A stretch of 63,229 bases of DNA, filler included, from Bonamia ostreae (GCA_040357525.1; 57 parts of 57 records of this genome joined end to end with filler, not necessarily neighbours in it), one strand, 5' to 3'. Numbered from the whole stretch's first letter, positions 483 to 63,045 are shown. Numbers and translations are program-made. The notes: generated by a model from the sequence alone, not told the origin.

Positions 483-903
483 TTTTCAATTGTTGGCTCC
501 GGCCCATCTGGAATGTACACAGCAATGCATTTGTTAAGAAAATTCAAATTTGCTCAAATCACTTTGTTTTCGTCTTAAAAATGACCGCTTTTTTATAAAA
601 CAAGCACTTTTTAAATCAAAAATATTTATAAAAGAATAGACAAAAATCCGATGCCGTTTGGGTTAGCCAGGTTTGGGGTCGCTCCTGACAACACTGACAC
701 CAAACGGGTTCTGAACAGATTCAACGACATTTTGTTGAATCCGAATTGCTCTTTTTTGGGAAACGTCAAAGTTTCGTTTTAGATTTTCAGTTTTTGTAAA
801 AATATTTGTAAATTATTATCTTTTTGTTTTCAGTTTGGAAAGGACATAAAAATTGATTTTCTACAGAAATATTTTGATGCAGTTATTTTGGCTTACGGTG
901 CTG
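483..903 (+). CDS. FDXR: NADPH:adrenodoxin (ferredoxin) oxidoreductase, N-terminal exons, protist
   Basis: Spliced with introns 566-634 and 771-833 it reads FSIVGSGPSGMYTA...TLIDKNPMPFGLARFGVAPD...FLGNVK/FGKDIKIDFLQKYFDAVILAYGA. This has the FAD-binding GxGxxG and the PFGLxRxGVAPD motif; start codon not resolved. Confidence 0.9.
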
Positions 904-1018
904 GTTTTTCTATAAAATTGCAATATTTTTGGTCATTTTGTAAATCTATTAAATTTGGTTTATGCCATTTTTCGATCTTAATCAAATGTCTCCGTTTTTT
1001 ATTTATGTCATTTTTGTG

Positions 1019-1118
1019 NNNNNNNNNNNNNNNNNNNNNNNNNNNNNNNNNNNNNNNNNNNNTTAATTAATTAANNNNNNNNNNNNNNNNNNNNNNNNNN
1101 NNNNNNNNNNNNNNNNNN
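1019..1118. other. Artificial contig-joining spacer (first of 56)
   Basis: 44 N + TTAATTAATTAA (stops in all six frames) + 44 N, recurring every ~1.1 kb; contig lengths fall monotonically from 1018 to 1004 bp. Confidence 0.99.
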
Positions 1119-1180
1119 TTTATGATTTTACAGAGATATACATGGGAACAATAATGCCGCGTTAGTTAATTTTCTCATAG

Positions 1181-10057: not shown

Positions 10058-10818
10058 AGAAACTCAATTAATTTTGATTCTAAAATCGAGACGAATAATT
10101 GATTGTTTAATTTTTTCCAATTAAAATATTTTCTTGTTATCGAATCTGTTTACATTCATTTTAATATTAATTAATATTGGTGAATGGTCACTTCCAATGT
10201 CTTTGAGTTTTTTATATTTGATACAAAAATATTAGAATATTTTTTTGTAACAACTAAATCAACTGTGGATGTGTCACCAAAATTATTAGTCAGTGTTGAT
10301 ATGAACTTAACTTTATTAACTAACTTCAAATTAGTCATTGTATTATAAAGTTTAATACCATTTATATTTCTCTTACTATTAGACCATGATTCATGTTTAG
10401 CATTAAAATCAGCACAAATAATGCTGTCATGATTAAAATTTATCTCTAAAAATATTTCTTCAAAGTTAATATTTTTAGATGGAATGACATACAAGTTATA
10501 TACATATAAACTTTGTTTGTTTATTCCATAAATTTTAAGACCTTGTATTTCATAGCAGTTATTATTATCTAATTTGTGATGTTTTAGATTTATAATATCA
10601 TGCTTAATATTATTTTTTATATAAATATTAAGTCCACCGCCACTTCTGTTGTGGCTTCTATTATTACAATAAACATCGTATCCATTAATATAGTTTTTAT
10701 TTTTATTCCATACTTCTTGTACACAAACAATATCTGGTTTATTTATGTATATCATATTTTTGAATTCATTGAAATTTTTATTTAATGACCTTGTATTTGT
10801 TGATATAATACACATCAT
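10058..10818 (-). mobile_element. Non-LTR retrotransposon ORF2 APE endonuclease, frameshifted
   Basis: EEP motifs STNTRSL, PDIVCVQEVW, GGGLNIYIK, ICADFNAKH..W, NG..L, STVDL; the terminal GSDH motif and RKYFNWKK lie in other frames. Confidence 0.85.
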
Positions 10819-11571
10819 TGTATCAGGATATTAATATTTAACATTTTCTTATGTAAACTGGTAAAAATATTTTCAAGATATCTTTCAATTTTACTTTCTA
10901 TTTTATCCATTATTTTATTTATCAGCTTAATTTCATCATTTTCTGACAATACAAAATTTTCGGATACTTTATTTAACTTGTTTTTTATATTAACTTTTTT
11001 TACTTTTTGTTTTTCATCTTTCTCGATATCTCGTTTAGGATAAATAGCATTTTTATTTAAAAATTCGTCTTCAGNNNNNNNNNNNNNNNNNNNNNNNNNN
11101 NNNNNNNNNNNNNNNNNNTTAATTAATTAANNNNNNNNNNNNNNNNNNNNNNNNNNNNNNNNNNNNNNNNNNNNTATAATATTGATATATAACTGATAGT
11201 CATACATGCTCTTACTTACAGTCATGTACTACATCAGATTAAGATGTTAATATACTAGTATTCACTACATGCTCAGCATGTCAAAATGAGAGTACTGGAA
11301 CTTGCAGATAAAACATTGACAAATGAGGAATCTATATTCTCGTTGTGAAAAAGATTGCTCGTGGACGAAATGATTCGGGTGATTGTTATTAACCCATAAC
11401 TTTACCTTATTATTAGGTAATTAAGGTATTCATAAACAGCATATTGTAAAACAATTTTATCTCCAGACTTGTTTAGTTTGAATTAATGTATATACTGTAG
11501 ATGCTAAAGAACATCGGAACTGCGGGATCATTTTAACAACCAAATCTACTCATCTGACAGACATTTTCTTA

Positions 11572-12290: not shown

Positions 12291-13306
12291 CAAGTCTCAG
12301 ATTGTTCACTTGTTCTACCTGTGATTCATGTAAGTGAGTGCTACATTTTGCAACTACAGGGTCCATATAATCTGGTAATGCGCATTTCTGAAGTGAATTC
12401 TTCATTTTCTCATCATTTTCTACAAATTCTGTGCAGGAAGGATCTACCAAATCTAAATTAGCAACTACTGAATTCTTGAATATAGTACAGGGTTCAAAAC
12501 CAAAATTTGCAATACGAAGGGGAACAACAGATTGGGCAGGGGAAACTAAAGCTTTAGCTACTAAAATACCCTTCTTTTCTAAAATTGCGAGGCTCGATTC
12601 TACTATCCCACATGAACTGTCAGAAGAAATTTGATCTATCAATTTTCCATTTACTATAACTTCTGTCTCAGGGGGGACCACTACTGTCTCCTGAATGGCG
12701 ATTCTACAGCATCGTAAATTACCTCTGTTGATATCATTTCTTTTATTTAAAGGGATAAGAAGACCATTCATTTCTAGACTTGGAGGATCTAAACATATGA
12801 CACTCTCATTTTCAGATAAAAAGTCTAAACCAAGAAGTCCTTCATTCTGAATATCTGCGATGATAAACTGCTGCATCAATACTAGTTTCCCAATAGCTAT
12901 TGATAAATTAATTTGGCCTATGCAGGGAGAAGATTCTCCTGTGGCGGTGATGATTTTTACATTTTGCAGGGGTGTAATACGAGATTCAGCTAACTGGAGC
13001 CTATGAACTAAATTCCTAGAGAGAATACTATAGTTGGCTCCTGTATCTACTAACATTCTAACAGTTTGTTCTTCTATTCTCAAGTCTAAAAACAAACCTT
13101 CTTGATTTGGGAGATAGTTTATTGTGACGGTCTGGGGCGGAATTGTTGAGGTCGAGTAGCGCCCCTCGGACTCGACTGATTGCGGTTTCCCTGGTCTCTA
13201 TCATGATCTCGACTATGAGTGGAACTAGTCTCCTTGAGATTTGACCTATTCTGGAAATTTGCGTGTCTCCCCCTAAATTGATCATTTCTAGTTTGTTTGT
13301 TTTGGG
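12291..13306 (-). mobile_element. Ty3/Gypsy LTR retrotransposon gag C-terminus, aspartic protease and dUTPase-like region
   Basis: LVDTGANYSIL and GLLGLDFL protease motifs; gag frame open to a stop at 13119-13121; pol is in the -1 frame. Confidence 0.9.
13134..13191 (-). promoter_or_regulatory. Programmed -1 ribosomal frameshift signal (G GGA AAC plus H-type pseudoknot)
   Basis: Heptamer at 13191-13185, 8-nt spacer, stem 1 GTCGAGT/ACTCGAC, stem 2 GGGGCG/CGCCCC. Confidence 0.8.
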
Positions 13307-22456: not shown

Positions 22457-23050
22457 ATGTTTTATGCCAAAACTATGCTGGGAGCTAAAGACACCAATTT
22501 ATCTAAAGCTTGGTTAGCAGCACATTTAAACGGCACCCACAAACTCCGAAAAAACGAAATACAAAAAGTTAAAACTAAAAAATTCTTAGATGTTGCTACA
22601 AATCCATTTACATTAAAATAAAACTCCAAATTATTTAAAAACAAAATCCAACCTTATTAAATTTATATGGTTTGTCATTAATATAAAGACAAACGTTTCT
22701 GAGACGGCAACAACGCTGATGACCGAAGACTTATCAATGGCCCTCAGAATACTGTCGCAATTGTTGTTGGGGGTCACAAGAATTTACGCGAGACAGGTGG
22801 ACTATCTCTACTACGACTCAGCTAACGCTCTTTTAGTTCTGAAAAACAAACCTTCTCAAACTCGCCCGTCTAAGCGCAAATCAACTAAACTCGCAAACGC
22901 CCGAAATTTGGCCAAAAAATTATCAATGGCGGGTTACAACTATAAAAACGCAAATACAATATTGACAAAAATATGAAAAAATAGGTAAAATTCGACCGTC
23001 CCGTTCTCCAGACGACGAAGTCATTATGAGAGGAAGCCAACAAAAAATGG
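22457..23050 (+). CDS. Rad21/Rec8 kleisin N-terminal domain, protist
   Basis: MFYAKTMLGAKDTNLSKAWLAAH...KLRKNEIQK/(intron 22568-22688)/TNVSETATTLM...MALRILSQLLLGVTRIYARQVDYLYYD. Confidence 0.92.
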
Positions 23051-35952: not shown

Positions 35953-36465
35953 CTAAAGGTAGTAAGCCTTAGCTTTACATTTGGGAGTAAAAAGGCGATT
36001 TTCGTTTTTTCCGGCGATGATCGATCCGTACAAATAAGCCACTTTATGGGCGATCTGACATGGCGCAGGGACTCTAATCGGACCAGGGAAATTGTAGTAA
36101 GTGTGACATAATTGGTTTGTAAACGTTTGCAGTTCTTCCTTTGTTTTTAAATTTTGTTTAAAATATTTTCAAAAATTTTTAAGAACATTGGAAATGCCGT
36201 AATCGTCGTAGACGACAATATATCGGGTTGGCCTGGACGTCTTTCCGTTGGGCGGTTTCGTCGTCAACATGTAGAAGTCCCAGAAGCGGGAGCTGACGAT
36301 GGTGTGGTCGACGACCGTACCTGGTTCGCCGGATTGCAAATTAGTGTTGAAGATCCGAAGCGAAACCCTTTTCTGCACTACGACGAAAGTGATTTTCGGG
36401 TTATAAGCGCCCTTCGCTCTTTTCAAAATCTCATAGTGTTTGAAGGAGTTTTTGAATGATTGCAC
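35953..36465 (-). CDS. Piwi-clade Argonaute, C-terminal exons (36187-36465, 35953-36138), protist
   Basis: [34 protein letters not shown]...[52 protein letters not shown]...AYYL*. Confidence 0.93.
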
Positions 36466-40106: not shown

Positions 40107-40935
40107 AATTTTGTGATAGAAGCTCTCAAATCGCCCCATTTTTCGTTGTAAAACTTGAAATTAAATTTTTCTCCCCAATGACAAAAATCCGAAGAAATCA
40201 CAAAAAGACTATTTTCATTAACAAAGTATTTATTCAATGTTCTTGCTGCGTTTCTTGCTCTTTTCTCATCTAGTTCTCCGACCATTATTGGAACTAGCTT
40301 AAATCTTTGTCTAAAATTAGATTTTTTTTATATTTTTAACGCCCTTTTTAATATTTTTCAATCAATTTTTGCAATTTGCGTAAAAAAAAACTCCGCCATT
40401 CTGTATTTTAACATGGGACAACAAAGGTCAATGCTATGCTCTTTTTCGTCGTCATAAGGCTCATGTTTCGAAAAACCTGGTTGTTGCAAAAGATCTTTAA
40501 CGACTAAATTTCAATTTTTTAATTTGGAATAAATTTGCAAAAACTATTTTTGTCTATCTCGATGTCCCCAAACGGCGTATAAAATCGATCAAAAGTAGTC
40601 AAAAGGCATTTGTTTGTGTAAATTTGGTGCGAAGGCCCTAAAACGAACACAGTTTTTCTATTTTTGCAAAAAATGAGATTTTGGTTTTAAACATTTTTTG
40701 GGGATTTATTGCTTGATAAGCACACGCCGCAATTTCTCCGCTATAATCATATCCAGCGTGTCTAAATTTGGTTTGCGGTTATAATAAATTACGGAGAAAT
40801 GATCGCTTTTACATTTCCGCAAAATTTGCTTTGTTCGGCTTCGGCTCTGTCAAAATGTTTCTTTAGTAACCGGGACAATTTCGTTTTGTCGTTTTCATAC
40901 CAAGATCCCGCAAATAATGATTTTCTTAATTGCAT
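40107..40935 (-). CDS. MEMO1: MEMO1 family protein, protist, 5 exons, 3' truncated
   Basis: MQLRKSLFAGSWY..KAIISP/HAGYDYSG..VFVLGPSH..TPFGDIEID..DEKEHSID..LVPIMVG..LFVISSDFCHWG; introns 40762-40792, 40658-40692, 40504-40544, 40311-40391. Confidence 0.95.
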
Positions 40936-41263
40936 TCAATTTTTATGACAATACAACGTCTAAAATTTAGAATAATTTAACGTTGTTATTATATTTAAAT
41001 TTGTTAGTGCTTTTAAGCTTTAATTGTCTGTTTAATTAAACAACAGAGCCGTCTTTGTCTGTTTTTGATGTTAAATTTCAAATAAGATTTAATTGTTTAT
41101 TTGTGGTACAACAACNNNNNNNNNNNNNNNNNNNNNNNNNNNNNNNNNNNNNNNNNNNNTTAATTAATTAANNNNNNNNNNNNNNNNNNNNNNNNNNNNN
41201 NNNNNNNNNNNNNNNTGACAAAATTAATGAAAAAATAGTGAAAAAAATAAAAAAGGGATAAAC

Positions 41264-42223
41264 GATCCGTTTCGCATCGTCTGCTCCAAGATTCAGAACT
41301 CGTTTGTAAAAAGCGGCTTGTTCGTTCAGATCGATGCTTCTTTCAAAATTTTCCGCCGCCGATAAAGCTGCTTCACACAATTGTTTTCCCTCTCCAGTCG
41401 GCTCCGCCACATAACATTTCACAGCTGCGCTTAATAGCTGATCTCTCACCTTCAATAAATCAATCAACATTTTCCAATTTTCCAATTTACAAAATTTCAC
41501 AATTTACAAAATTTCACACAAAAACTCCATCTTCGCTCTCTTGAAATCCCTCAAAATAATATTTCAGTGCCTCCAAAACGTCGATTTTAAGCTTCCCATG
41601 TAAAGCACCCAGAAGCCAAATAAAAGCTTCAGTCGAATCGGATCGGTCGATCAACTCCGGGTTCTCAGCCAATTCTTCGACGACATTAAGTCGCCGGTAA
41701 TCCGGAAACGCGTCGAAGATCTGCTTCAAAACGACCGAAATTTCATTTGCGATGTGATTTCTCTTTAATGTCAGAAGCGACCGCAGAACGTTGATGCACT
41801 GGTTGAGCTTTGATGGAAGTCTCAACGCGACTTTTCCGATAGCTCGGATTCCCAAACGAGCGAGATCGACATCAACTTCGCGTGAATAATCGTTGAATTC
41901 AAGTAAAATCTTTAATTTGAATTTTTGGCTAATTTTTGTTTTTTAGATTATTTTTGCTAAATTTTGATTTTCCAATTTCCATTTTCAAATTTTTTTGGAA
42001 AAATTAAGTTGATTATTTTCAAATTTAACTTGTTCGGCATTAGAAGAATCAGCGATGAGAACTAAAAGATCGATTTTTTCTGATTTGATGTAAGGCGGAT
42101 CGTTGTATTTGCAAAATAGAACTCTCGTCTAAATTTTAATTTAGAAACATAGTCTTTCAAGAAATTTGGATGCGCTTTCAAAAGTATTTTTAAGTTTTTC
42201 AGAACGATATATTGTAGTTCTTT
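41264..42223 (-). CDS. AP complex beta-adaptin, internal exons, protist
   Basis: LFCKYNDPPYIKSEKIDLL..EQ/ILLEFNDYSREVDVDLARLGIRAIGKVA..FIWLLG; introns 42129-42148, 41910-42029, 41450-41525. Confidence 0.92.
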
Positions 42224-44654
42224 NNNNNNNNNNNNNNNNNNNNNNNNNNNNNNNNNNNNNNNNNNNNTTAATTAATTAANNNNNNNNNNNNNNNNNNNNN
42301 NNNNNNNNNNNNNNNNNNNNNNNCAATGATCGTTGATAACAGCATCAGAATTAATTTGTATCTTTCCCAAGCACGATTCGTATAAGTACTTGTTTCCACG
42401 TCTGGTTTCACAAAATATCAGCATACAATCCTCATCATTCACCTGTGTTGAGTCGTAATATACTAATTCTAATATACATGTACTCATTCTAAATGCCTAT
42501 GCGCAAAGTCACAATGTAATATCAAAATGATTGTGACGCATACTATATACATAAAGATAGAAATTTTTATGATATCAAAGGAAAAAAAAAAACCGTTTGA
42601 CAAGCAGATTCATACATATACAATCTGAACACTTCATAACGGCAATAAATAATGGAAAAACATGACGTTTTCTCCGCAACACAACTATACGTCGTGACGT
42701 ACTACTATATTGTGTCGTCGTATAGTGCGAGCTGCATTGGTGTACAATACTCATTTAACCTTAATTACGCTCCCCAGGGGAAATATTTATTTCATAATGA
42801 ATAGTGCACAATTTACAAATGCTTCATATATTATTAATCCGAGTGCAGATGTTGAGGTAATGAACAGCGATCTATCTCACTAATTTCCAAAATGATACAA
42901 AATTAAGAAATTAAGAGAAAATCAAGCATGGCTATATGTTAGGCTATAAACTAAAATATGCATTATTAAATTTAGAATCTGCATTACGTGAAAATAACAA
43001 ACAGTAATAATGAAAATGCACACTCTTTTCTTAAATAAGCAATGTCCCGAATAGGTTGTAAAACAAGTATATGCATTGTTTTTCATGAAAGTAATTGTAG
43101 ACGATAATTGAAATAAAAAAATTACATTTCTCAAATTGTAGATCGCATGCCGAGTAAGACTGTATCTAGATCCCGATGGTTCCCCAGGTCCGTTTTCTGA
43201 GAGAAGCAACTATTTCTATGCCGGATTGCAGGTACGTATCACTTACGATTTTTAGGCTTCAATCCATTTCTCAAATATCTTTGGTCATATCGGATGTATG
43301 ACTGATCTTTATTCATTGCTCCTACAATCTANNNNNNNNNNNNNNNNNNNNNNNNNNNNNNNNNNNNNNNNNNNNTTAATTAATTAANNNNNNNNNNNNN
43401 NNNNNNNNNNNNNNNNNNNNNNNNNNNNNNNTCGGGGTACTCAAACTAAACATAAGAACAGATAAAATGTCTCAAATATTTAAAGATATTGTAATATATT
43501 CACATGAGAAACCACTGCATTTATTACAAATGATATATCATATATTTGTGTGTCAGATACCTGGAGGGATTATTGTTTGATGCAAAGTGCTCTATTGTCG
43601 CAGCTATGAACTACGAGCAATGGAAATGCGAAGCCAAGTCATTATTAGATGAAGTAAACACTGAACTGGAACTCGGAAATCAGGTAATACAAACCGTTCA
43701 TATCTAGATAGTTCAGATGTGTTGATTATTCATTTAAACAAAATTATTATGTTTAGATTATATTTGTCTCTTTTGAAGAAATAGTAAGGATATTGAGGTT
43801 CTTTAGACAAAGTAAATTAGTTTTATGCCACATATAAACTTCTCAAAATACAACAAATCAACCTATTGCAACTAACTAAATTGCCAAATATTATCCTAGG
43901 TGAATGGTGAAGTAAGTTTCCACAGAGAAGATAATCAATTATTAAAAATCCTTCTCAAGAACGCCTTCCCTAGGGAAGCCAAACATTACACATTTAATGT
44001 TATTTGATTTTGTACCAAAATCCTCTGACGACAGAACAGTTTAATTTCTACATAGGAATATTCTTTAAGAATCTTCTCAAACATCACAAGGATGCAAGTT
44101 GGGACATGTGCATACTAATGTGCAATTTCCCGCATGAAAACAAGTGAACAGTGATAGGTCTCATAAATCCTGTAAAATATACAAAATCGAGAACATGTTA
44201 CAACGAATTTAAATCCTCTCAAATAACAATGCCTGTACAAGACCTGCCTCTTGTTTTGATGTTCCCTCGGTGTGGGTCTCTCGTAAATGAAAATTGTCAC
44301 AACCTAAAAGATATTTCAACAATATAGTGAGGTTAGGCAAAAATTTGTTCTGTTTTCCGGTTTGATGCACGGCGTACTTTCTATTGTCAATAAATATGTA
44401 GATTAATTTCATACATCTTGATTACTTTCGTTTGAAAATNNNNNNNNNNNNNNNNNNNNNNNNNNNNNNNNNNNNNNNNNNNNTTAATTAATTAANNNNN
44501 NNNNNNNNNNNNNNNNNNNNNNNNNNNNNNNNNNNNNNNAAATTTCGTAAAAAAATAAGTCGAAAAAATTTTGTCAAAAAAATAAGTCGAAAAATTTTTG
44601 TCAAAAAAATTAGTTGAAAAATTTCGTAAAAAATAAAGTCGAAAAAATAAAAAC

Positions 44655-45646: not shown

Positions 45647-46512
45647 CAAAACCAGTAGAGCAAAGCGAATGGAAATATGTTTTTACTGACAATTTGGCGT
45701 ACTTGTGCGATCCAAAAAATTATCCTTTATTACTTTCTTACGATTGTATACTCAAAACGGAGGGAGACACTTTTGTTACACCAAATTTTTCCAAATGGTC
45801 GCCTCGACTTTTTACTTTTGGTCTTTAATTTTTTGTTACTAGTCTATTTAAAGTATATTATTATAAATTTATTTACCGAAGGAGGTGGACAATATGCTAC
45901 AGATGACAAAGTTAGGGAAAAAATAATCGAAATCGCCTTTAAAAGCAACAATATTTTGTATCAGAAAGCTAGGAGTAAATGGATAGAAAACGTTGGAGCT
46001 TCTTTGTTTTTAACTTAACTCTTGCACGATTTGTAACATCTCTTACTATGATTTTCCTAATTTTTAGATATGGCGATCCGGCATTGTTAATCAAATCACA
46101 TTGCATAGCAATGGAAATACTGAAATATATCTTAAAGGAATTTGATCTTCGATCTACAAAAGGTAAATGGCCTGGCTGGTACCGAGGAGTGAGTTCTATG
46201 TATGCGATAGAGATTGGAGTAAACTTTGCGCTCGCGGATGGCATATGTGAAAAGAATGGAAAGTTTTTGGACCATTCTTCAACGAATGGAAAGGTATCGG
46301 AAACGGCTCACATTCATTGTTGGCACACTTTTGACATGTTTTCAAAATTTGAGTTTTTGAATGGGAAATATGAGCAGCACAAAAGAGTGAAGATAAAAAA
46401 CTCGGAGAGAATTAATTTTTACTGTTTGAAGATAGCCTTAGGACAGTTTTCAAGGGGTGGAGAAATAGTTGATTCAAAAGAATATGCGCAGATGTTGTTT
46501 GAAGATTTTTAA
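45647..46512 (+). CDS. Uncharacterised protein (DUF7164-like, possible GT-A glycosyltransferase fold), protist
   Basis: Spliced with introns 45821-45881 and 46006-46067 it reads YDCILKTEGDTFVTPNF..GGGQYAT..NVGASLYG..WPGWYRGVSSMYA..HIHCWH..FSKF. Confidence 0.55.
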
Positions 46513-48706: not shown

Positions 48707-48748
48707 AAGAATACTGGAGTTTATAGAATGCCTATTAGTAGATAAGAC

Positions 48749-48784
48749 AAGAGGTAGGAATCTGGTTAGAAAAACCTACCTCTT
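48749..48784. terminator. Intergenic hairpin, possible terminator
   Basis: Perfect 10-bp inverted repeat AAGAGGTAGG/CCTACCTCTT with a 16-nt loop, 42 bp after the stop; no strong U-tract. Confidence 0.45.
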
Positions 48785-49096
48785 AAAATAACAATTAACA
48801 TAAACACTATGAAAAGTTTATGTCTGGTACTATTAATCGGACTAATGATTAATTAAAACATCACAAANNNNNNNNNNNNNNNNNNNNNNNNNNNNNNNNN
48901 NNNNNNNNNNNTTAATTAATTAANNNNNNNNNNNNNNNNNNNNNNNNNNNNNNNNNNNNNNNNNNNNAAAGATAAAAAAAAATTGCCATAAAAAAGATTA
49001 AAAAAATGTAAAAAAATCAAAAATTGAAAAAAACAGTAAAAATTGCCAAAAAAATCAAAAATTGGTAAAAAAGACTAAAATTGTCAAAAAATTTAG

Positions 49097-49660
49097 CAAC
49101 AAACGATCCGCAAACTGGCGACGACATTCAAACTGCGCGCCACCTCCGGAATCAAAAACTGCCACGTCCTCAAAACGCGGTTCAAGAAGGACCAGTTCGA
49201 GACGCGCATTCAGACCGAAGGCGTCAACTTCATCGCTCTCTATAAAGCGCAGAACTTCGTCGACGTCGACTCCATCCGCTGCAACGACATCGTCGCAGTG
49301 CTGCGCTCCTACGGCATCGAAGCATGCCGCTTCGCCGTCATCGAGCAGATCCGCGCCGTCTTCGACGTCTACGGCATCTCCATCGACCCGCGCCATCTGG
49401 CGTTGGTGGCGGAGGCGCTGACATGGGACGGAGACTTGCGCGCGTTCAACAGAGGCGACCTGTCGCAGAGCGAAAGCACTCTGTTGAAGATGAGCTTCGA
49501 GTCGGGGATTAGTTTTCTGCAGGAGGCGATATTGTCCGGGGAGAGGGAGGAGGTCTGCTCCCATTCGGCGCGGCTGGTGTTAGGGCAGACGCCGTTAGTC
49601 GGGACGGGGTCTTTTGAGTTGTTGCAGAAGTTGGATCTTCGAGATGGCAGTCGACATTAA
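49097..49660 (+). CDS. RPA1: RNA polymerase I largest subunit, last exon, protist
   Basis: TEGVNF..NDIVAVLRSYGIEACR..VFDVYGISIDPRHLALVA..FNR..LLKMSFES..SARLVLG..GTGSFEL. Confidence 0.92.
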   Translation, partial: QQTIRKLATTFKLRATSGIKNCHVLKTRFKKDQFETRIQTEGVNFIALYKAQNFVDVDSIRCNDIVAVLRSYGIEACRFAVIEQIRAVFDVYGISIDPRHLALVAEALTWDGDLRAFNRGDLSQSESTLLKMSFESGISFLQEAILSGEREEVCSHSARLVLGQTPLVGTGSFELLQKLDLRDGSRH

Positions 49661-49707
49661 ATTTTGAAAAATTTGTAAAATTGTGTCAAAAAAATTGAAC
49701 ATTAAAT

Positions 49708-49973
49708 TTACTTTGAAGAATTGTCGCTTTTGAAGCAACCAGGACAAAATTGGTTGGTCAGAAAATCGGCACAAACTTTGCAAAAAAATTGATTGCAGTT
49801 GCTGCAAACTTTTGTTAACATTTTTATTTCATCGTTACATCCACAGCACTTGTTAAAATTTTTGTCCAAATTTTCAAAAGTTGGGCGAGGCACAATCCTT
49901 TTGTATATTGAATATATCGATGTCTCTGAAGTCTTCATATTTGGCCAAATTATAAAAAATTTGAGCGACATTA
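49708..49973 (-). CDS. C-terminal Cys-rich zinc finger, probably TFIIH p44/Ssl1
   Basis: P..TFE..CCGC..CSNCNQFFCKVC..F...CPGC matches the Ssl1 C-terminal pattern; convergent with RPA1. Confidence 0.55.
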
Positions 49974-50073
49974 NNNNNNNNNNNNNNNNNNNNNNNNNNN
50001 NNNNNNNNNNNNNNNNNTTAATTAATTAANNNNNNNNNNNNNNNNNNNNNNNNNNNNNNNNNNNNNNNNNNNN

Positions 50074-50250
50074 ATTTCAAATTTCTAAATTTCCATTTTG
50101 CCATTTTAAAGCAATTTCAAATTTCTAAATTTACATTTTGCCATTTTAAGCAATTTCAAATTTCTAAATTTACATTTTGCCATTTTAAAGCAATTTCAAA
50201 TTTCTAAATTTCCATTTTGCCATTTTAAAGCAATTTCAAATTTCTAATTC
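50074..50250. repeat. ~39-bp intronic tandem repeat, about 4.5 copies
   Basis: ATTTCAAATTTCTAAATTT(C/A)CATTTTGCCATTTTAAAGCA repeated. Confidence 0.95.
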
Positions 50251-50264: not shown

Positions 50265-51028
50265 TTTGTCCCACGGATATTTCCGAGGATCTAAAGCGGT
50301 TAACTGTTCTTCTAAATTTTTCTCGTCGTTACCTTATCAGATCGACCAAAAAACGGGAATGGTTGATTTTGAATACTTCGAAAAAAGCGCGAAGAGATTT
50401 CAGCCAAAACTGATTGTTACCGGCGGAAGCGCTTATCCTCGAGATTGGGACTATTCTCGTTTTGCAAAAGTTTTTTTTGCGGCATTTAAAAAGACGGCCA
50501 AAATTTTGAATTCCGTTTTAATGGCGGACATATCGCATTTTAGTGGATTGGTCGCCGCAAAAGTTTTTTATTTTTCAAAATTTGCCCTTTCTAAAATTTT
50601 CAGATATTAAATGATCCGTTTGAACATTGTGACATTGTGATGTCAACAACTCACAAAACTTTGGGAGGACCGAGAGGAGCACTTATTTTTTACAAAAACG
50701 AACTTAAATCAAAAATCAATTTTTCCGGTTTTCTAAAAACTAACTTTTGTTAAAAATGGCTTGCGAAAATTTTAAAAATTGCCGAATCGTTACTAAATTT
50801 GCTAAAAATCTAGTTTTTCCGCATTGTCAGGGCGGTCCTCACAATAACAACATTGCGGCAATAGCAGTTCGCCTTAAAGAAATATCTGAAAACAAAAAGA
50901 AATATGTCGAGGATTGCGAACAAATCGTTTCAAATGCCAAAGAATTGGCCAAATGTCTCTCAGACAACGGATTCCATATAATGGCTGGTGGCACAGATAC
51001 ACATCTGATTCTGTGGAATCTCAAAAAG
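50265..51028 (+). CDS. SHMT: Serine hydroxymethyltransferase, internal exons, protist
   Basis: [70 protein letters not shown]; introns 50470-50493, 50563-50603, 50728-50813. Confidence 0.96.
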
Positions 51029-52548
51029 GTTTCTAACAATTTTCTATAACGATTTTATTTTTGAAAATTTACAGAAAAANNNNNNNNNNNNNNNNNNNNN
51101 NNNNNNNNNNNNNNNNNNNNNNNTTAATTAATTAANNNNNNNNNNNNNNNNNNNNNNNNNNNNNNNNNNNNNNNNNNNNTTTGATGTCCAGGGTTAAACA
51201 TATTTTTAAAAAAAAACAAATAATACATTTTTCTATATAATCCATCGTAATACAGAACTCCTGATCATTACCCAGTGTTTATGACTTCATAAATTTGGTT
51301 GAGGCCCCATATCTTATCAGGAATAGATACACAGCTTGCCTGCTATATGTATTCGAGTAAAAAGAAAATATCTATAAATCGCATATTTCTTTTAAAGTTT
51401 AGTCATTTCCCTTAGCTCCTGATTGGGAAGAAGGAGGTCATGAATTTCACAGTCTTGTTACTCTGAGCCCAAATGCTTCCAAGTTGTGGTACAAATCGGT
51501 CCTAAATATTTGAGAATAAATTCCAAATGTTACCGCAAGACGTGCGTATACGATAGACAAGTCGCAGTAAAGAAACAGTGGAAAGGGAGGACGTTTATCA
51601 TAACGGTTGAACGAGAACGCTTTGAGTGTAAAACTCAGTTTTCGACCACTAATGAATAATGGATATAACATTCCCTCTTTGAAGACAAAAATTATGTGTT
51701 CAATTATTATAAATACTCTATGTTCACCTTCAGTAGAAGTGCACTATTCACCGCGGTGCATCGACAACCGGTATTCCGATTCACCTGAGGTGGTTCGATT
51801 CAATATAAAAGAATAAAATCTTTTATGGTATATATTCACTTCCTTTAACTTTTAAACGACGTCTCTGATTGGCTAGAAAACGTCCAATCAAGATGGAGCA
51901 AAAATCAAATAATCCATGGCTAAAATGGATTTCAAAAAATCGTGTGTGTTTCGTTATGGTTGTTCCCAATGATTTCTGTAATTTTTCATTGAGTGAACGA
52001 ACATTTTTTTAGTCAAATTGATATTAAAGATTGTTATGAAATTTACTGATCCTATGATACCATATACCTAATTTCTAAGAGTTACTCTAAATCTAAGTTA
52101 CTTAAATGAATATATACAATACGGCCAACGTGGATCCCGTATCAGACCACGCTACCTCACCCCCACCCCACCCCGCGGTATGTTANNNNNNNNNNNNNNN
52201 NNNNNNNNNNNNNNNNNNNNNNNNNNNNNTTAATTAATTAANNNNNNNNNNNNNNNNNNNNNNNNNNNNNNNNNNNNNNNNNNNNTCTTCACCTTTCATA
52301 CTACTAATTATGTCTGTTTCCTTCACCTTCTATCCAAGAGTTTTAAAGTTATTCAGTTACATTATAAACGAAATAACAATTATTGACACATTTTATGTTG
52401 TATAGACGTCTACATATCAAGATACTTCTGATATCCAATAGGCTAGTTGCTTTCATTTATGACATCGGGTATTCAGAGAAAAATACGTCGCTAACAAGGC
52501 CAATCGTCTAAATTAAAGTATATTGTATTGCTAGTTATTTTATTCAAG

Positions 52549-54496: not shown

Positions 54497-55501
54497 TTCC
54501 CGCGATTCACTGTTTTTACATTTGACAAAACATCTACAATTGTAACAACATATTGCTTTTTCATGAATGGATAATCCAATGAGGTCAATTATAGGGAAAA
54601 TACACACAATACAATGCCAAGGTATGCAAATAAGGGAACACAAAAACTGTTTGGTACATGACAATTTTGGATCACCATCGCTACTCTGACTAGGGGAATT
54701 GTTATCACTATCACTTCTCTGCTGAATTGACAACCTTGCCGCTTGTTTTCCGTCACGTTTATTATTTGATTTATGTCTTATTCTACACGAACAACACACA
54801 CGGGTTTTATCATGACGCTCAAAACACTTTATACAGTAATTAATACAATTACAAATGAAATCTTTAACAATATTATTACTCGGACCAGTGGAATCTCTTT
54901 TACTTTCACTACTCGGACCAGCGGAATCTTTTTTACTTTCACTACTCGGACCAGCGGAAACTGTATTACTTTCACTACTCTGACCTCGGGAAGTTTGATT
55001 ATTTTCACAACACTGACTACAGCAACATTTACAACACTGACTACAGCAACATTTACTACAATCACAACGACAGCATAAACAGACACAAAAGCTGTGCCCT
55101 AATTTTATACAATTTTGTTTCATTATTTCTATATGGCTCGTAAATCTATCACTGACTTTGTGTGAAGCACGTGAAGACATATAAATATTATACAGAGCAC
55201 TGCAAATAGACATTCCAATAAATGAACCTAACGTCGCATACACAACATCCAGAATATAGGCTGAATTTTCACATGGCAGGAAATCAAATATTGGCTCACT
55301 CGTGCCTACAACATGTCTGTAATCTTCATATAGAGTACTTGTTATGTGTTTTCTATACACTGTGCGATACAATCCGAATGGAAATAGACTAAAAAACCAT
55401 ATGATGAACATGAGTCGGAATGAAGGTGAGTTGTAGACATATTGGCTAATCCAGTTACACAACTTATTGCAACAATTACAATTTCCATCAACTTCAGAAT
55501 A
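54497..55501 (-). CDS. Host Cys-rich membrane protein, partial, with 33-bp and 24-bp coding repeats
   Basis: Long ORF with hydrophobic helices, CCCSQCC repeats and AGPSSESKxDS repeats. Confidence 0.6.
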
Positions 55502-55676
55502 NNNNNNNNNNNNNNNNNNNNNNNNNNNNNNNNNNNNNNNNNNNNTTAATTAATTAANNNNNNNNNNNNNNNNNNNNNNNNNNNNNNNNNNNNNNNNNNN
55601 NGTTTCAACAGAAAAAAATATTTTTTTATTCGTTTCAACAGAAAAAAATATTTTCATAATTCGTTAAACAAAAAAG

Positions 55677-56495
55677 GTCGAATGCACATCGCACAAGGGC
55701 TCATGAAAACGACCAACGTCAACAAACTCACCAGCTCCGGCATCCACTTCACCTTCCTCGTTGCCGACTGGTTCGCCCAGCTCAACAACAAATTCAAAGG
55801 AGACCTCTCCAAGATCCGCAAAGTAGGACAATACTTCCTCGAAATCTGGAAGGCGTGCGGGATGAACCTCGAACACGTCTCCTTCGTCTGGTCTTCCGAA
55901 GAAGTCAACAAACGCCCCGACGAGTACTGGCAAATGGTGATGGACATCGCCCGCAAAAACAGCGTCGCGCGCGTCAAGCGCTGCGGCCAAATAATGGGCC
56001 GCTCCGGAGACGCCGACTCGGCTCAGAACGAGTCGCTTCTGCGCTCCATCTTCCGCTCCCGCGAAGCAGACGCCGCTCTTAACGAAGACGAGTTCGTGCG
56101 AAAGCACCTTCCGTCTGCTCGCAGCGACAACCAACCGGTGGCGCAGCTGTTGTATCCTTTGATGCAATGCGCGGACGTCTTCTTCCTGCGCTCGAGCATC
56201 TGCCAACTGGGGCTGGACCAGCTGAAGGTGAACGTGTTGGCGCGGGAGTACTGCGACCAGCTCAAAGGCGAGAAGAAGCGGCTGCGGAAGCCGATCGTGT
56301 TGTCGCATCCGATGCTGATGGGACTGAAGCAGGGGCAAGCGAAGATGTCGAAGTCCAACCCGGATTCGGCGATTTTCATGGAGGACTCGGAGGCCGAGGT
56401 GGAGCGGAAGATGAAAAGAGCTTATTGCAAACCGGGAGATGTGGAGGAGAATCCGGTGTTGGATTATCTGGACAAAGTGGTGTTTCCGTGGTACG
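55677..56495 (+). CDS. TyrRS: Tyrosyl-tRNA synthetase (HIAQ type), protist
   Basis: GRMHIAQG, VADWFAQLNNK, YPLMQCAD, CQLGLDQ and KMSKS motifs. Confidence 0.96.
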
Positions 56496-57889
56496 GTTGT
56501 AACAGTGATTTTCTCTTTGTTGTGACAATAATTTTTTGTCTTTAAAATTTTTTTTATTTTTAAATTTTTAAATTTTTTTTTCGTTTTTTCGCTTTTTTTA
56601 AATTGNNNNNNNNNNNNNNNNNNNNNNNNNNNNNNNNNNNNNNNNNNNNTTAATTAATTAANNNNNNNNNNNNNNNNNNNNNNNNNNNNNNNNNNNNNNN
56701 NNNNNTTTGTTCTTAAACACAAACAGTTTTAATTAAAGTTTATTCGGGTTATGATTAGTCTTGAAAGCAGTCGCACAATCACGCACGATAAGATCACCAA
56801 CCGTAATGGGATGGCGTAGTTTCACGATAGTTCGTGCAATTAGCCGAACATTGTCGCTAGATCCATACCATTATCTGTAGGAAATAAAAATCATATGTCT
56901 TTTATAAACACTCTTTCGATCTTGAGTACTTTATCACGATAACTTAGCAGTTTTCGTGTACATAACTTTTTCAAAATTTAGATTTGTGCATTCCACTGCA
57001 TTCAATACGTGCGATTTAGTGTAGAAGGTATGTATTCGTATTGGCAGAAAAAGGCAAACCAAAATATATGATCCGAAACTCGTCTTCTTTTCAATTTTTT
57101 GTAATATATTACTATATCAGTATCACCTTAATTGGTTTACCAATGTTTGATACACAAACTTCCTCACAGTCAATAAGCGTGACACCATGAATTAACGTTA
57201 TAAAACCGAATAATGCAATTCCCGTCAGTTAATATAATCTTATTATAGAACTCGCACAGTTAATGTAATGTAATACTACATTAGATGTGTGACTCGCAAT
57301 GTATCAGATTCTATCAGCTGGCATGGATTACATTAGTCGGTGCTACATAGGGTGATAGAAATGACACCACATGAGTAAAAGACAAATTCACTACAATTTT
57401 ATGACAGTCATTAGCAGCTTTAGTCATATAGATACAGAAATTTTGGATGATGTCCAGTGTACATTCATGTATTTTGAAAATAGCGACTTCAAATCCCTCT
57501 ATATCACGTAATATCATTTCGAAGAATATTTTCATATAAAACATTTCAATTCTACTATGAACAATGTAATAATAATGATTTCGATTTCAATTGAGTATAG
57601 GAGACCAGGTGTGTGGGTCGTTCTTGTCCATGGTCAAACAGAACAATTCAGTACGTTAATGACTGCCCAATAACGAAAGAGGATGTGGACATAGCTACCA
57701 ATATCAAGGNNNNNNNNNNNNNNNNNNNNNNNNNNNNNNNNNNNNNNNNNNNNTTAATTAATTAANNNNNNNNNNNNNNNNNNNNNNNNNNNNNNNNNNN
57801 NNNNNNNNNTGCATATACCGTGGGAATGTTTATTATAAGCAGTTTAAAAGTATATACAGGAATTTATTTTCGGTTCTGATGCAGATAGT

Positions 57890-58350: not shown

Positions 58351-58913
58351 CCAAAAGGAACACTTTGAATTGTTTTAGGATTTCCTCAACCAATGATTTC
58401 AATGAGACAGTAAAGGAAATAGCTTCCAACGAACGGGACATGGGCTGATTACCTACCTTATGAAGTTATGGTTAGAAATTGTTAACATTATATAATCATT
58501 GATATTATAGTTAAGAAGACCACGTCCCTAGCGTGTAATTACTCAGAGGTATTGATGAAGGAACGGCTTCGAATCTTGTAGTTAGGACTTTATCCTGTAT
58601 CATATCGTTAAACTGTTTCTATCAAAAGCTTTAGAAGTTTATACAGATGTGTAGTTTTTGTTCGTATTCAACTATTTTTCATAAAACATTTTCCCATGCC
58701 GGAGAAAGTGTGTGAAAGCAATTTAAGCTTACTGTAGATGTAGGAATCAATGTGACAATGTAGACAAAGTGGTTTCATATTTTTTTCAAAGAAACTTAGA
58801 AAATGTCAACAGANNNNNNNNNNNNNNNNNNNNNNNNNNNNNNNNNNNNNNNNNNNNTTAATTAATTAANNNNNNNNNNNNNNNNNNNNNNNNNNNNNNN
58901 NNNNNNNNNNNNN

Positions 58914-59917
58914 TTATTAATATCATTTTTGATATCTTCAAACGATTTGTTCGTTCTAATCCGCAAATTATCGTCAGATTTTTGCGATTGTAATTTTTGA
59001 AGCACCTTTTAATGTTACAAAAACTTTTTTAGCCAAAACAAAGGCGATTTTGTTATTTTTTATTTCGTAACAAATTCTTTTAGCGGAAGGCACAAAAGTA
59101 CTCAAATCTCCAAAGTAACTTCTATCGAAATTTTCAAACAGACTCAAAACCCATTTCAAGATCCCGCAAATCGCTTTTCTGTCAAGTTCCTTAAAAGTTG
59201 CGAAAAGTTACATCGATGTAATCTTCGGTGTGCGCTAGGACGTTTTTGAGAGTGATTTTCGGTCCAATTATTTCGCTCGCGATATTGAGACAGTTTTCGT
59301 TGCTTTTCAGCAATTTTGGGTCGCCGATGTTGTTCAATAGTCCTTCTAAAATAAATGTGAACTGATCTTCGTCAAATTTGTCGTGTGAGCGCATCATGAT
59401 CTGGTAAAACAACCGGGACATTTCTTTCACGACGTTAATCTCGTTGGACTAAAAATTGTTTTGAAAACTTTCCAACCGTCGATTTCAACAAGAAACAGAA
59501 TCATTTGCGAACAGAAATCGTCTTATTAAAAGTTTAGTTCAAAACTGATTTCTTCGTGAGACGAAATGATTTCTGTGACCTGTTTCAATAACTTTAAATT
59601 ATTTGGCGAAAACGTCGCAGCACTTTTTGACGTTTTTCGTTTCGCAGAGCTCTTCCAAAATGTCGATCGGTATCAGTTTTTTTAGTGCTTCAAGGTTCCT
59701 TGAGACTCTCGCCATTTTTGTTTCTTTGTTTCTGAATTTGTTGCAATTTTTTATTGAAGAAAACTTTCGTATCGTCAGAAATCGGTTTGTTTTTTTGGAC
59801 GGGAATCGCAGTGTTTTCATATTCGGTTTGATGATTTCCCGTTTTTTCGAGTTTGGAGCTACAAATGCGTTTGGTTTCTTCACTTTTGTACTTTTTTCTT
59901 TTGATTTGTTTTCGAAT
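58914..59917 (-). CDS. XMAP215/ch-TOG family TOG domain, protist, partial
   Basis: GWK/SNEINVVK..ILEGLLNNIGDPKL..CLNIASE..LKWVLSLFENF aligns by eye with TOG3; introns 59449-59468, 59190-59211. Confidence 0.7.
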
Positions 59918-62225
59918 NNNNNNNNNNNNNNNNNNNNNNNNNNNNNNNNNNNNNNNNNNNNTTAATTAATTAANNNNNNNNNNNNNNNNNNNNNNNNNNN
60001 NNNNNNNNNNNNNNNNNGTACTGATAAAAACTATTGCATCTTATTATACATCAGCTTTGGCGTATCTTGAAAGCATGGACGGAATATTATTGAACTATGC
60101 TTGAAACACATGTTTGATTTTCCTGAAAACAACAGTTCAACTAATTAGATTATTATGTAGACTTCAGTACTATCTATCTTTGTTATTGCTAACTCTTGCA
60201 ACAATTCTCAATAGAAGACTAGGAAATAATGCATCTTATTGTATATAAGCAAAATTGTAAATGTCGGTTTGTGCCAGTTGACAAAAATATTTTAACTGGC
60301 ACATACAATTATTTGCCGTCCGCCTTATGAACATCTGTCGATTGCCACAAACTTATAGGACGCATATATTATATGACGTTCGGCACATACTTTTATATAT
60401 AAATATGTGAAGGTCAATAGATATAATATTATTTCTCGTCAACTAGCTTCCATACGAGATCCTTTGTGAAAAATGATCTCCTGGAAAAAGTTTTAGACAT
60501 ATTAATCTAACGTTTGCCGTTTTATCAGAAATCGTATAGAAGCCTCTTGGAGACCGTTAATTACAAACTTAATTATGGATTGCATATTATACACATTTTT
60601 ACAAGATATGATATTTTAGGAGAAAGAAGGCAAACAGCATACATGTAATTTCCCCTTACTCATTTTTGTATTAGTTTTTATTTCATTTTATTATTTTTTA
60701 CACTTGAGTTTTCCTTCTCAATAATCAAATGAGCAAAACCATTATAATGGTACATTGTGTGATGAATTTTGAGAAAAAAATATCTGTTGACAAATTAAAC
60801 TCAATCTAAACGTTTGGAAGTCACAATTTGTTTTGGAAATATTATTTGTAAAACATATAAAACAAAAAGAAAAAAAAACGTGTAAAGTTAGATTCATGAC
60901 ATTTTAATTATTATTCAGCATCTCTGTTGTATATGTAAGTTATGGTAAATATGACAGTGATTTACTTCATTTTATTGTATATCAAAATGGTATGTGTATG
61001 TGATTCATGATTTACAAACAANNNNNNNNNNNNNNNNNNNNNNNNNNNNNNNNNNNNNNNNNNNNTTAATTAATTAANNNNNNNNNNNNNNNNNNNNNNN
61101 NNNNNNNNNNNNNNNNNNNNNAACATGTCGATATTTTATTCAAAATAACTTACAAGCAAAATAGTTGTGTTGTCTGATTACGTTCATTCATGCCAATTAT
61201 ATTATTACTGAAATATTCTATACAATTGCCTTTCCTCATTTAAAATACTGTTGTACTATTTTGGAAAACAAGATAAGTTTTTACAAAATTATGTAAACTT
61301 CAAAATTGAGCTGCTTTCGGAGTTATTTTTGATATATATTTTATACACCTTCAACAGATCTATTGCCCGGATGCATGATTCGTTGTCTTAAAACAGCACT
61401 AATTATTTTTACATTACTTCTTGCTGTGCGATACTTGAACAACTTTCAAAATTATATTGAATATCTTTTTTTAACTTAGATATTGTTTTGAATATTTCAT
61501 TTCTTAGTAATGATGGTATTGTTTATTTCTTTGAATTTGCCGTGTGAATGACGATATAAGTGATAACTTTAATGGAATATATGCTGATACATACATGATT
61601 GAATTCATAGCAATGTAAATGTAACCCCCCAACCCACAACCCCCCAAAGACAGTTGTCATAGAAACGCGAAGCCTCTATGGTCATGCGTTAATCCAAACT
61701 TTTTTGTCAAGGAGATTTGTCGAAATGTTTGCTAGACCCCTATAGCTGAAAATTATTCAAGAGCGGGCGCAGAATATCAATTAGTTGGGTTGGGGATGAC
61801 CAATTTAGGATCCCCCATCAGGCCCCGAATGGATGCATGGATCTATGGCAAAGTCCTGGTGTTGTCCCTGGGTACAAAACCCTCGAAGTTACATGATCTC
61901 CTAAAAGCCTCGCATAGAGTAAGTTAGATGTTTGAAAACTATTTATTGCTACTTATTTATTTTTAAAAAATTTAATACGGCTAGGGGAATATGAGAACGT
62001 ATATTATTAATGTATATAGTGAAATATGTACGTGTATGAAACGCACATTGGCTTATCTGAACGGGTTATTCCAATTTCAATGATTATTTGTGCAAGTTTA
62101 GGTAGAGTTGATTATATATTCTATANNNNNNNNNNNNNNNNNNNNNNNNNNNNNNNNNNNNNNNNNNNNTTAATTAATTAANNNNNNNNNNNNNNNNNNN
62201 NNNNNNNNNNNNNNNNNNNNNNNNN

Positions 62226-63045
62226 TTTCTGTAAATCTGCTTTTTAGAGCTTTGCTCAAGTCTTTTTTGCCATAATCTCCAGATGGATTCATTGTCGCCA
62301 TTATCGCGAATGAAGTCTCTGCTTCTAAATTTAAAAAATTTTGCGAATTTAATTTAAAAATTCAAATTAAAACTGATTTCTTTGTAAATATTCGAAGTTG
62401 AACATTTTTCGGGCACAAAAATGGATCGACCTTCTTCTAAGACACTGTTCAATCGTTCGATAACAGCATTTTCGGCCAAAGAAATCTTTTTTATAATTTT
62501 GAAAAAAAACTTCGTCGAAGAGAATATAATCGCCGTTGATCATGGCTTGCAACAAAACGCCATCAGCCCATTCGAAAATTTTGTTTGAATGTTTTTCTGT
62601 GTTTCTGACGGGTCGAAATTCGCCGATAAAATCAGAAGATTCTGTGTTTTGATTGCAGTTTAGAATGTGAAGTTTTCTTTTTCGAAAGAGGGAAATCAGC
62701 TATTTTTGTTGTTTGATATAATATTTATCCAAACGTTTTAAGTCCGGATAGTTATTTGGTATAATAACAATATAAAAAAGTCCGAAAATGGAGATAAAAC
62801 AAAATTATCCGATAAAATTACAAAAAAAGAAATATATAAAATGAACACTGTAAACAAATTTTATAAACTTGGCAAATGGTGGTTTTGCTGTTTCCAGGGC
62901 CTCCGACGAGCAGAACAGGTTCGTTGTTTTGAATTGCGGCCAAAACTAGATTAAACAAGCGCATCATTTTTGGTGTTAGAGTTATCGATTTTAGTCCAAA
63001 TTTGTTCAATTTTGTTTTTTCGATCAACATTTTTTCTATTTTCAT
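62226..63045 (-). CDS. MDN1: Midasin/Rea1 AAA module, protist
   Basis: EPVLLVGGPGNSKTTICQ/..LNCNQNTESSDFIG..FEWADGVLLQAMINGDYILFDE/ISLAENAVIERLNSVLE../ATMNPSGDYGKKDLSKALKSRFTE; introns 62700-62868, 62486-62510, 62325-62373. Confidence 0.93.

Follow-up and report, generated by a model that had tools for sequence, protein, structure and literature searches.

GTTTT-type donors in an unusual variant of GT-AG splicing from an AT-rich eukaryote in a mixed genome assembly

The purine at +3 and the G at +5 of the 5' splice site (donor) of an intron have U1 and U6 small nuclear RNAs (snRNAs) as their usual pairing partners, and the canonical 5' end of U1 is ACUUAC. Several eukaryotes are reported, in the extracts of the literature used throughout this study, to depart from this arrangement. 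In Entamoeba, introns start with GUUUGU in 88-90% of cases and with GUUUGN in 97-98%, U is present at +7 in ~80%, and AACAAAC replaces the standard pairing sequence of U1 (10.1101/2022.06.08.495308, Roy and Bowser). The same study describes atypical donors together with a standard U1 in GUAUGU yeasts, Giardia and Trichomonas, finds strict atypical donors mostly in intron-poor lineages, and shows co-evolution of U1 only in Archamoebae (10.1101/2022.06.08.495308). Mikrocytids possess 224 introns of 16-17 nt with nearly identical sequences, and only the U2, U4 and U6 snRNAs were detected in them (PMC10245619), while in myxobolids and Dicyema the median introns are 22-27 nt long and the 5' signal is reduced to 'GTa' (PMC13644364; PMC6543705). 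Here we examined a stretch of 63,229 bases (the window) from the Bonamia ostreae assembly GCA_040357525.1, in which 24 GT..AG introns were placed in 9 contigs, most of them with donors of the form GTTT.

The introns are genuinely spliceosomal and of the GT-AG kind; they belong to a second, AT-rich and fast-evolving eukaryote and represent an unusual variant of GT-AG splicing. Taking both parts jointly, we favour, at a probability of roughly 0.55, a shift of the donor to an A-rich exon end followed by GUUUU, with U at +3 to +5, and a co-evolved, A-rich U1.

Intron placement and donor consensus

Introns were placed by using GT..AG as a search condition in combination with flanking homology, continuity of Pfam profiles or reading frame. 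They are distributed over FDXR (2), Rad21 (1), Piwi (1), MEMO1 (4), beta-adaptin (3), DUF7164 (2), SHMT (3 and a 24-nt candidate), a contig labelled 'TOG' (4) and an MDN1-like gene (3), with the coordinates listed in Table 1. Twenty-one of the 24 donors begin with GTT and 18 with GTTT; the remaining three are GTAATT, GTAACT and GTCTTT. As background we used the intron interior (964 nt; 40% T, 39.5% A and 8.9% G). Against this background, T is enriched at +3 (21/24, p 1.9e-6), +4 (19/24, p 1e-4) and +5 (16/24, p 0.007), reaches 14/24 at +6 (p 0.05), and is back at background at +7 and +8 (9/24 each). The exon side is A-rich, with A at -2 in 14/24 and at -1 in 13/24, and G at -1 in only 3/24. 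The pattern can be written as (A)A/GUUUU(U), the slash being the exon-intron boundary, with neither a preference for purine at +3 nor a G at +5. The U1-complementary consensus GURAGU does not describe the 24 donors, as judged from the counts at +3, +5 and -1, and none of them resembles the U12-type donor (A/G)TATCCTT.

We considered whether composition alone could produce this pattern, in which case the T-run would mirror the T-rich introns and GT contexts and any GT would be usable as a donor. The introns are indeed 79% A+T, and GTT is already the commonest GTN (47%) at 294 non-donor GTs on the same strands. Moreover, the complete lack of G at +5 (0/24) is not below background, because about two would be expected from the 8.9% G of the interior; what is missing is the usual strong preference for G at this position. 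Nevertheless, T at +3 and +4 is about twice as frequent as in the interior and the excess ends before +7, and A, which matches T in the interior, occupies +3 in only 2/24 donors and G in none. In addition, GTTT makes up 75% of donors and 19% of non-donor sites (Fisher 2.9e-8; 9e-5 for GTT). These data make an explanation by composition improbable.

The consensus depends little on the choice among neighbouring GTs. In 20/24 introns no in-frame GT remains between the chosen donor and the first stop, and when the latest donor is taken throughout, against homology in four introns, T at +3 is still found in 19/24 and G at +5 in 1/24. An earlier note on this DNA had placed 21 introns; the three added here are the SHMT candidate and a pair from the 'TOG' contig. 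Its description of the donors as mostly GTT, with the same three exceptions and without G at +5, applies equally to the larger set, and the excess of T over intron background, which it had proposed to check, is clear at +3 to +5. It had also noted acceptors without a pyrimidine tract, and we likewise found short T runs only and no long tract, with AAG in 11/24.

For 20 introns, GT..AG was fitted at homology-consistent sites; the four in MEMO1 were in addition observed as joints (see below). In FDXR, the identity of which was confirmed by alignment to bovine adrenodoxin reductase, the open reading frames (ORFs) flanking intron 1 join gaplessly on residues 10-37 and 38-82 of that protein, and an alternative donor, GTCTTA at 572, would give 2 residues more. 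The exon upstream of FDXR intron 2 matches adrenodoxin reductase to residue 82 and ends at the last in-frame GT before a stop, and the downstream exon is positioned by frame alone. The two ORFs of Rad21 cover positions 1-42 and 34-93 of Pfam Rad21_Rec8_N with a continuous junction at 34/35 (alternative donor GTTGCT, 24 nt further on), and those of Piwi match positions 176-259 and 259-298 of Pfam Piwi, with no later in-frame GT.

For beta-adaptin, intron 2 gives a gapless join at residues 353/354 of AP-2 beta, and intron 3 is gapless against both AP-2 beta (476 to 480) and AP-1 beta1 (477 to 479), with a weak downstream match (E ~0.1-1) and an alternative donor, GTGTGA, 6 nt later that would give 2 residues more. 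Immediately past an in-frame stop, the exon downstream of intron 1 is homologous from its second residue onward (AP-2 beta 322); the contig holds two upstream GTs, both GTT, and the alternative one would make a 77-nt intron. A solved-structure search with the upstream exon (exon 1) found nothing, and this exon is presumably like those of other adaptins.

In DUF7164, intron 1 was placed by tblastn with the relatives P0121-P0123, and no GT other than its donor occurs from the end of the conserved exon to the stop; intron 2 joins gaplessly against the same relatives. For the SHMT introns at 50563 and 50728, tblastn with the relative P0001 returned query segments 140-232, 230-273 and 272-343; use of an alternative to the donor at 50728, GTTAAA located 21 nt further on, would bring in 7 residues absent from relatives. 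Past the end of homology, the SHMT donor at 51029 is the sole GT ahead of the stop. The GT and AG of the 24-nt SHMT candidate exactly bound an 8-residue insert missing from the relatives P0001 and P0003, which could also be a real coding insertion instead of an intron. In the 'TOG' contig, removal of four GT..AG segments of 20-24 nt turns five ORFs into one frame of 284 codons.

In the MDN1-like gene, intron 1 lies between a P-loop exon (AAA_7) and an exon matching AAA_5 21-76, with no alternative in-frame donor. The exon upstream of intron 2 stops at AAA_5 position 76 and, once joined, the restored frame continues through the Walker-B region, the middle exon having no Pfam match of its own (E up to 1); the exon downstream of intron 3 matches AAA_5 101-139, again with the frame restored. 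Two further GTTTTT donors are possible starts of partial introns and are kept outside the 24. Snf7 homology (Pfam 2-124) stops just before the GT of one of them, with low-complexity repeats beyond, and the reading frame of FDXR decays past the conserved exon end at the other. Likely introns in contigs 16, 23, 29, 31 and 35 were left out because they have no homology support and many frame-compatible GT..AG solutions. Our own gene-structure programs (longest ORF; codon log-odds) were discarded as noisy or biased to late donors.

Table 1. Positions of introns, possible partial introns and edge repeats in the window
Feature	Position	Strand	Length (nt)	Donor	Acceptor	Remark
FDXR intron 1	566..634	+	69	GTTTTC	AAAAG	
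FDXR intron 2	771..833	+	63	GTTTCG	TTCAG	
Rad21 intron	22568..22688	+	121	GTTAAA	TAAAG	
Piwi intron	36139..36186	-	48	GTTCTT	CAAAG	
MEMO1 intron 1	40762..40792	-	31	GTAATT	TTTAG	skipped by X1 contig
MEMO1 intron 2	40658..40692	-	35	GTTTAA	AATAG	skipped by X1 contig
MEMO1 intron 3	40504..40544	-	41	GTTTTT	TTTAG	skipped by X1 contig
MEMO1 intron 4	40311..40391	-	81	GTTTTT	TTTAG	skipped by X1 contig
Beta-adaptin intron 1	42129..42148	-	20	GTTTCT	TTTAG	
Beta-adaptin intron 2	41910..42029	-	120	GTTAAA	TAAAG	
Beta-adaptin intron 3	41450..41525	-	76	GTTTTT	TGAAG	
DUF7164 intron 1	45821..45881	+	61	GTCTTT	CGAAG	
DUF7164 intron 2	46006..46067	+	62	GTTTTT	TTTAG	
SHMT candidate intron	50470..50493	+	24	GTTTTT	AAAAG	in frame, no stop
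SHMT intron	50563..50603	+	41	GTTTTT	TTCAG	
SHMT intron	50728..50813	+	86	GTTTTC	TCTAG	
SHMT intron	51029..51074	+	46	GTTTCT	TACAG	acceptor putative, 5 nt from contig end
'TOG'-contig intron	59592..59613	-	22	GTTTTC	TAAAG	placed by frame logic only
'TOG'-contig intron	59522..59545	-	24	GTTTTG	ATAAG	placed by frame logic only
'TOG'-contig intron	59449..59468	-	20	GTTTTC	TTTAG	placed by frame logic only
'TOG'-contig intron	59190..59211	-	22	GTAACT	TTAAG	placed by frame logic only
MDN1-like intron 1	62700..62868	-	169	GTTTAT	AATAG	
MDN1-like intron 2	62486..62510	-	25	GTTTTT	AAAAG	
MDN1-like intron 3	62325..62373	-	49	GTTTTA	TTTAG	
Possible partial Snf7 intron	44540..44654	-		GTTTTT		inferred, outside the 24; runs off contig
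Possible partial FDXR intron 3	904..1018	+		GTTTTT		inferred, outside the 24; runs off contig
AT-rich edge repeats	23088-23274, 36467-36678, 44540-44648, 48990-49091, 50074-50247, 55602-55665, 63075-63229					

Observed joints, intron lengths and 3' ends

A public run kept as contigs (X1), which contains part of 40107-49973 and the labelling of which as RNA is a guess, provided transcript-like support for the four introns of MEMO1; the placement of the other 20 is sequence-based. One 1043-nt contig of this run matches the MEMO1 contig with a single differing letter and skips exactly all four introns, as they had earlier been placed from frame and Pfam Memo coordinates. The skipped segments end in CT..AC on the plus strand, that is GT..AG on the gene strand, zero letters are shared across the joints, and their positions are unambiguous. 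MEMO1 regions without X1 cover (the introns and 40982-41115) were not used as evidence. The comparison of predicted junctions with transcripts that had been suggested before was in this way carried out in part, with 4/4 MEMO1 junctions seen.

These joints bear on whether the introns could be an artefact, either of boundaries misplaced by the GT-AG assumption or of segments that represent DNA-level deletions or an intron-less copy. GT..AG was assumed rather than observed in 20/24 introns, many frame-compatible GT..AG pairs exist where homology is absent, and the RNA status of X1 is a guess. Against this, the four observed joints fall exactly on coding-strand GT..AG with no shared end letters, 20/24 donors have no later in-frame alternative, and junctions are gapless against solved structures and relatives. 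We therefore regard an artefact as very improbable. Programmed DNA elimination of the ciliate type was also considered and rejected: such TA-bounded elimination, which obeys no strand or GT-AG rule and is often accompanied by a non-standard code, would leave a shared TA at the joints, where no letters are shared, all four skipped segments are GT..AG on the coding strand, and the standard code fits, with open exons and TAA or TAG as stops.

The X1 contig departs from the genome at 40981, upstream of the start of this minus-strand gene, and its next 159 letters have no counterpart in the MEMO1 contig. On the gene strand the genome reads AC, not AG, before the break. Strain variation or a chimeric contig could account for the break, as could a spliced leader or another intron, one without GT-AG ends.

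The introns range from 20 to 169 nt with a median of ~47 nt, and 7/24 are no longer than 25 nt, a feature to which the earlier note had given no weight. At their 3' ends, 16/24 introns have T at -5 and 16/24 have A at -8, the latter within an A-rich zone from -9 to -6; typically, an A-run is followed by a short T-run and AG. A YTRAY motif 4-14 nt from the 3' end is present in 5/24 introns only. The base at -3 of the acceptor is A in 11/24, T in 10/24 and C in 3/24; AAG acceptors are about as common as TAG and CAG is rare, which is unusual for GT-AG introns. Some of the AAG placements may need checking, because all four transcript-supported acceptors are TAG.

Donor recognition compared with known systems

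The introns resemble canonical U2-type introns with GURAGU donors in their GT..AG ends, their loss from the transcript (MEMO1, X1) and the restoration of the frame, but they show no purine preference at +3, no G at +5 and no G at -1, and their acceptors have A and T about equally often at -3, with C confined to 3/24. Because base-pairing of the canonical 5' end of U1 (ACUUAC) would hardly extend past GU, and U1/U6 would lose their contact at +5G, donor recognition must differ from the textbook mode, and it is probably unusual in this organism.

Similar to Entamoeba, the donors have U at +3 (21/24) and +4 (19/24) instead of A/A, the introns are short and very AT-rich, and the acceptor is often UAG. 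In both cases canonical U1 would pair poorly with the donor, and Entamoeba is the published case of a U1 matched to it (10.1101/2022.06.08.495308). By analogy, a co-evolved U1 with an A-rich 5' end would be the most likely mechanism for the GUUUU donors, and altered U1/U6 or relaxed recognition stays plausible because Entamoeba has a co-evolved U1. U-rich-binding proteins of the TIA-1/Nam8 type next to the 5' splice site may assist, and in introns of 20-25 nt both ends and the branch A would be read as a single unit. The two systems also differ. G at +5 is present in 0/24 donors here as compared with 97-98% in Entamoeba, and U at +7 in 9/24 as compared with ~80%; the introns here are dense and their motif is looser, whereas Entamoeba is intron-poor with a very strict motif; and introns of 20-25 nt occur here, with none reported for Entamoeba in the available part of that study (10.1101/2022.06.08.495308).

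The U-run may have another meaning. In a reduced spliceosome with relaxed or U1-poor recognition, the donor would consist of little beyond GU together with length and geometry, U1 and U6 would be unchanged, and the U-run would be bound by a protein or serve flexibility. Such relaxation, which we regard as possible but rather unlikely, is compatible with the weak information past +4 (T in 16/24 at +5 and 14/24 at +6), the exon side without G at -1 (3/24) and introns as short as 20 nt. It is also compatible with the mikrocytids, with their introns of 16-17 nt and only U2, U4 and U6 detected (PMC10245619), with myxobolids and Dicyema, where introns of <30 nt go along with reduced splice-site motifs (PMC13644364), and with the many atypical-donor lineages that retain a standard U1 (10.1101/2022.06.08.495308). 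On the other hand, U at +3 in 88% and at +4 in 79% of donors is a strong position-specific signal, more than a loss of signal. Moreover, introns follow each other closely (4 in ~830 nt of MEMO1) and measure 20-169 nt, unlike the few uniform introns of the most reduced spliceosomes.

Neither group with ultra-short introns offers a full match. The mikrocytids Mikrocytos and Paramikrocytos are, like the organism studied here, AT-rich and very fast-evolving eukaryotes found with invertebrate DNA and carry ultra-short introns, showing that normal intron length is clearly dispensable for recognition; their introns are uniformly 16-17 nt rather than 20-169 nt (PMC10245619; the comparison covers the number, length and uniformity of the introns). 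Myxobolid myxozoans and Dicyema are parasites with AT-rich genomes and share introns of 20-27 nt without a pyrimidine tract and a few A residues just before AG as the likely branch site. Their 'GTa' signal and median of 22-27 nt differ from T at +3 in 21/24 and a median of ~47 nt with 7/24 introns below 30 nt (PMC13644364, PMC6543705). The introns described here do not form a uniform ultra-short class, in which all would be <30 nt with a GTa donor: only 7/24 are so short and A at +3 is found in 2/24. GUUUU without G at +5 in an intron-dense genome is matched by none of Entamoeba, mikrocytids and myxobolids or Dicyema, as far as the extracts describe them. No published report of a GTTTT donor consensus was found in the literature searched, a search confined to text and excluding figures and supplements, among them the mikrocytid intron logo.

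Several points weigh against a donor shift with a co-evolved U1. Co-evolution is not the rule among the lineages described, because several of those with atypical donors keep a standard U1 (10.1101/2022.06.08.495308). Only 24 introns in 9 gene fragments make up the sample; four of these introns were placed by frame logic alone, one SHMT candidate may be coding and one acceptor is putative. All four observed joints lie on a single contig of a run whose RNA label is a guess, and the bias at +5 and +6 is moderate only and equally compatible with relaxed recognition. The mechanistic half is a proposal; no Rfam family reached the gathering threshold in the window, and the four chance-level matches at E up to 5 included no snRNA. 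A small sample and a single transcript contig limit the weight of the finding.

Source of the contigs and implications

The window is a chain of 57 separate contigs ordered by length from 1018 down to 1004 nt, with 56 spacers between them, each consisting of N44, a fixed 12-letter piece and N44 (e.g. 1019-1118 and 49974-50073), and three further gaps of 10 N inside contigs (8491, 18310 and 37403). Because separate contigs are chained, the range 566-62868 covered by the introns is made up of unrelated fragments and represents no single locus, and features that apparently cross spacers have no natural contiguity. Principal component analysis (PCA) of tetranucleotides cleanly split the contigs into 18 of class P (PC1 <0) and 39 of class H (PC1 >0), with equal overall base composition. 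The P contigs have an observed/expected CpG ratio (CpG o/e) of 1.0-2.2 and abundant A-runs and CG words; the H contigs are animal-like, with CpG o/e mostly 0.5-1.1. All 9 intron-bearing contigs belong to class P. Of the canonical hexamers, P contigs contain GTRAGT 4 times and GTATGT not at all, and H contigs contain them 27 and 33 times, respectively, counting both strands.

Pfam was run on 431 stop-to-stop ORFs of at least 45 aa across the window. In P contigs the matches were Vps23, Rad21_Rec8_N, proteasome beta subunit, Piwi, Memo (five exon pieces), Adaptin_N, Snf7, DUF7164, RNA_pol_Rpb1_5, SHMT, tRNA-synt_1b and AAA_5/AAA_7 (MDN1-like). H contigs yielded an endonuclease ORF of the long interspersed nuclear element (LINE) type and a retroviral-type aspartyl protease, as fragments at 10174-10830 (-) and 12292-13197 (-). 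The housekeeping genes all lie on the 18 contigs with CpG excess, and the fragments of LINE and long terminal repeat (LTR) elements lie on the 39 contigs with lower CpG. The assembly is a mixture of at least two genomes. The earlier note, in setting protist against host sequence, had already implied two genomes, which the composition supports. It had further taken host exons with GTGAGT, GTATGT and GTAAG donors as an internal control; no such exons were found, Pfam giving nothing but transposon ORFs in the 39 H contigs. Eight of its nine gene names stood (FDXR, Rad21, Piwi, Memo, Adaptin_N, DUF7164, SHMT and AAA_5/MDN1-like), and the ninth, 'TOG', found no support from Pfam at E up to 1 or from a solved-structure search with the exon.

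The closest relative of the SHMT shares 62% identity, followed by fungi at ~50%, and the proteasome beta5 subunit matches animals, Leishmania and Plasmodium about equally. Metagenome scans revealed no relative above 52% identity, and a homologue search with the adaptin exon found nothing. The relatives of the DUF7164 gene (45649-46509, +), at 43-46% identity, come from metagenome and run assemblies, and one of them is a fusion with a family-2 glycosyltransferase domain. Atlas clusters tie DUF7164 to hydroxyproline O-arabinosyltransferase-like (HPAT) proteins; the phylum seen most often in them, Rotifera, has no diagnostic value. From the literature, a rhizarian parasite (Ascetosporea) is a tentative candidate for the source of the P contigs, for which the earlier note's term 'protist' would be provisional.

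AT-rich tandem repeats, their units 25-49 nt long, often lie at the edges of class P contigs (Table 1) and probably account for the assembly breaks at those points; some of these repeats sit within introns, e.g. upstream of an SHMT exon. In two P contigs, 48968-49973 and 55602-56605, the coding sequence is much richer in GC (0.44 and 0.50) and both strands contain long ORFs. Of these contigs, one encodes the C-terminus of the RNA polymerase largest subunit and the other a eukaryote-type enzyme of the TyrRS/TrpRS family. They share AT-rich edge repeats with other P contigs and may represent highly expressed P genes or a third organism. A 281-aa ORF without Pfam match at 47861-48703 (+) belongs to a contig in which CpG is extremely depleted (o/e 0.18), and contig 7 (6707-7723) is similarly depleted (o/e 0.13); these outliers of class H may come from yet another source. 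Another H contig carries a Cys- and Ser-rich ORF of 335 aa (54497-55501, -) with 33-nt repeats and no Pfam match.

For annotation, gene finders trained on GTRAGT, or set to a minimum intron of at least 30 nt, would frameshift many gene models in this organism, where 24/24 donors lack G at +5 and 22/24 lack a purine at +3. A more far-reaching and tentative possibility is that an intron-rich lineage moved its whole donor code to A/GUUUUU, that many of its introns shrank to 20-25 nt, and that the 5' end of U1, possibly with the C of the U6 ACAGA box facing +5G, changed to match. If true, this would be a second independent case of co-evolution between snRNA and splice site after Archamoebae, the first with many introns per gene, and a counterexample to the rule that transformed donors accompany intron loss. 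An intron-dense genome with GUUUU donors and introns of 20-25 nt would test whether co-evolution is feasible when thousands of introns must follow, and the same system would test the minimum sequence that a spliceosome needs.

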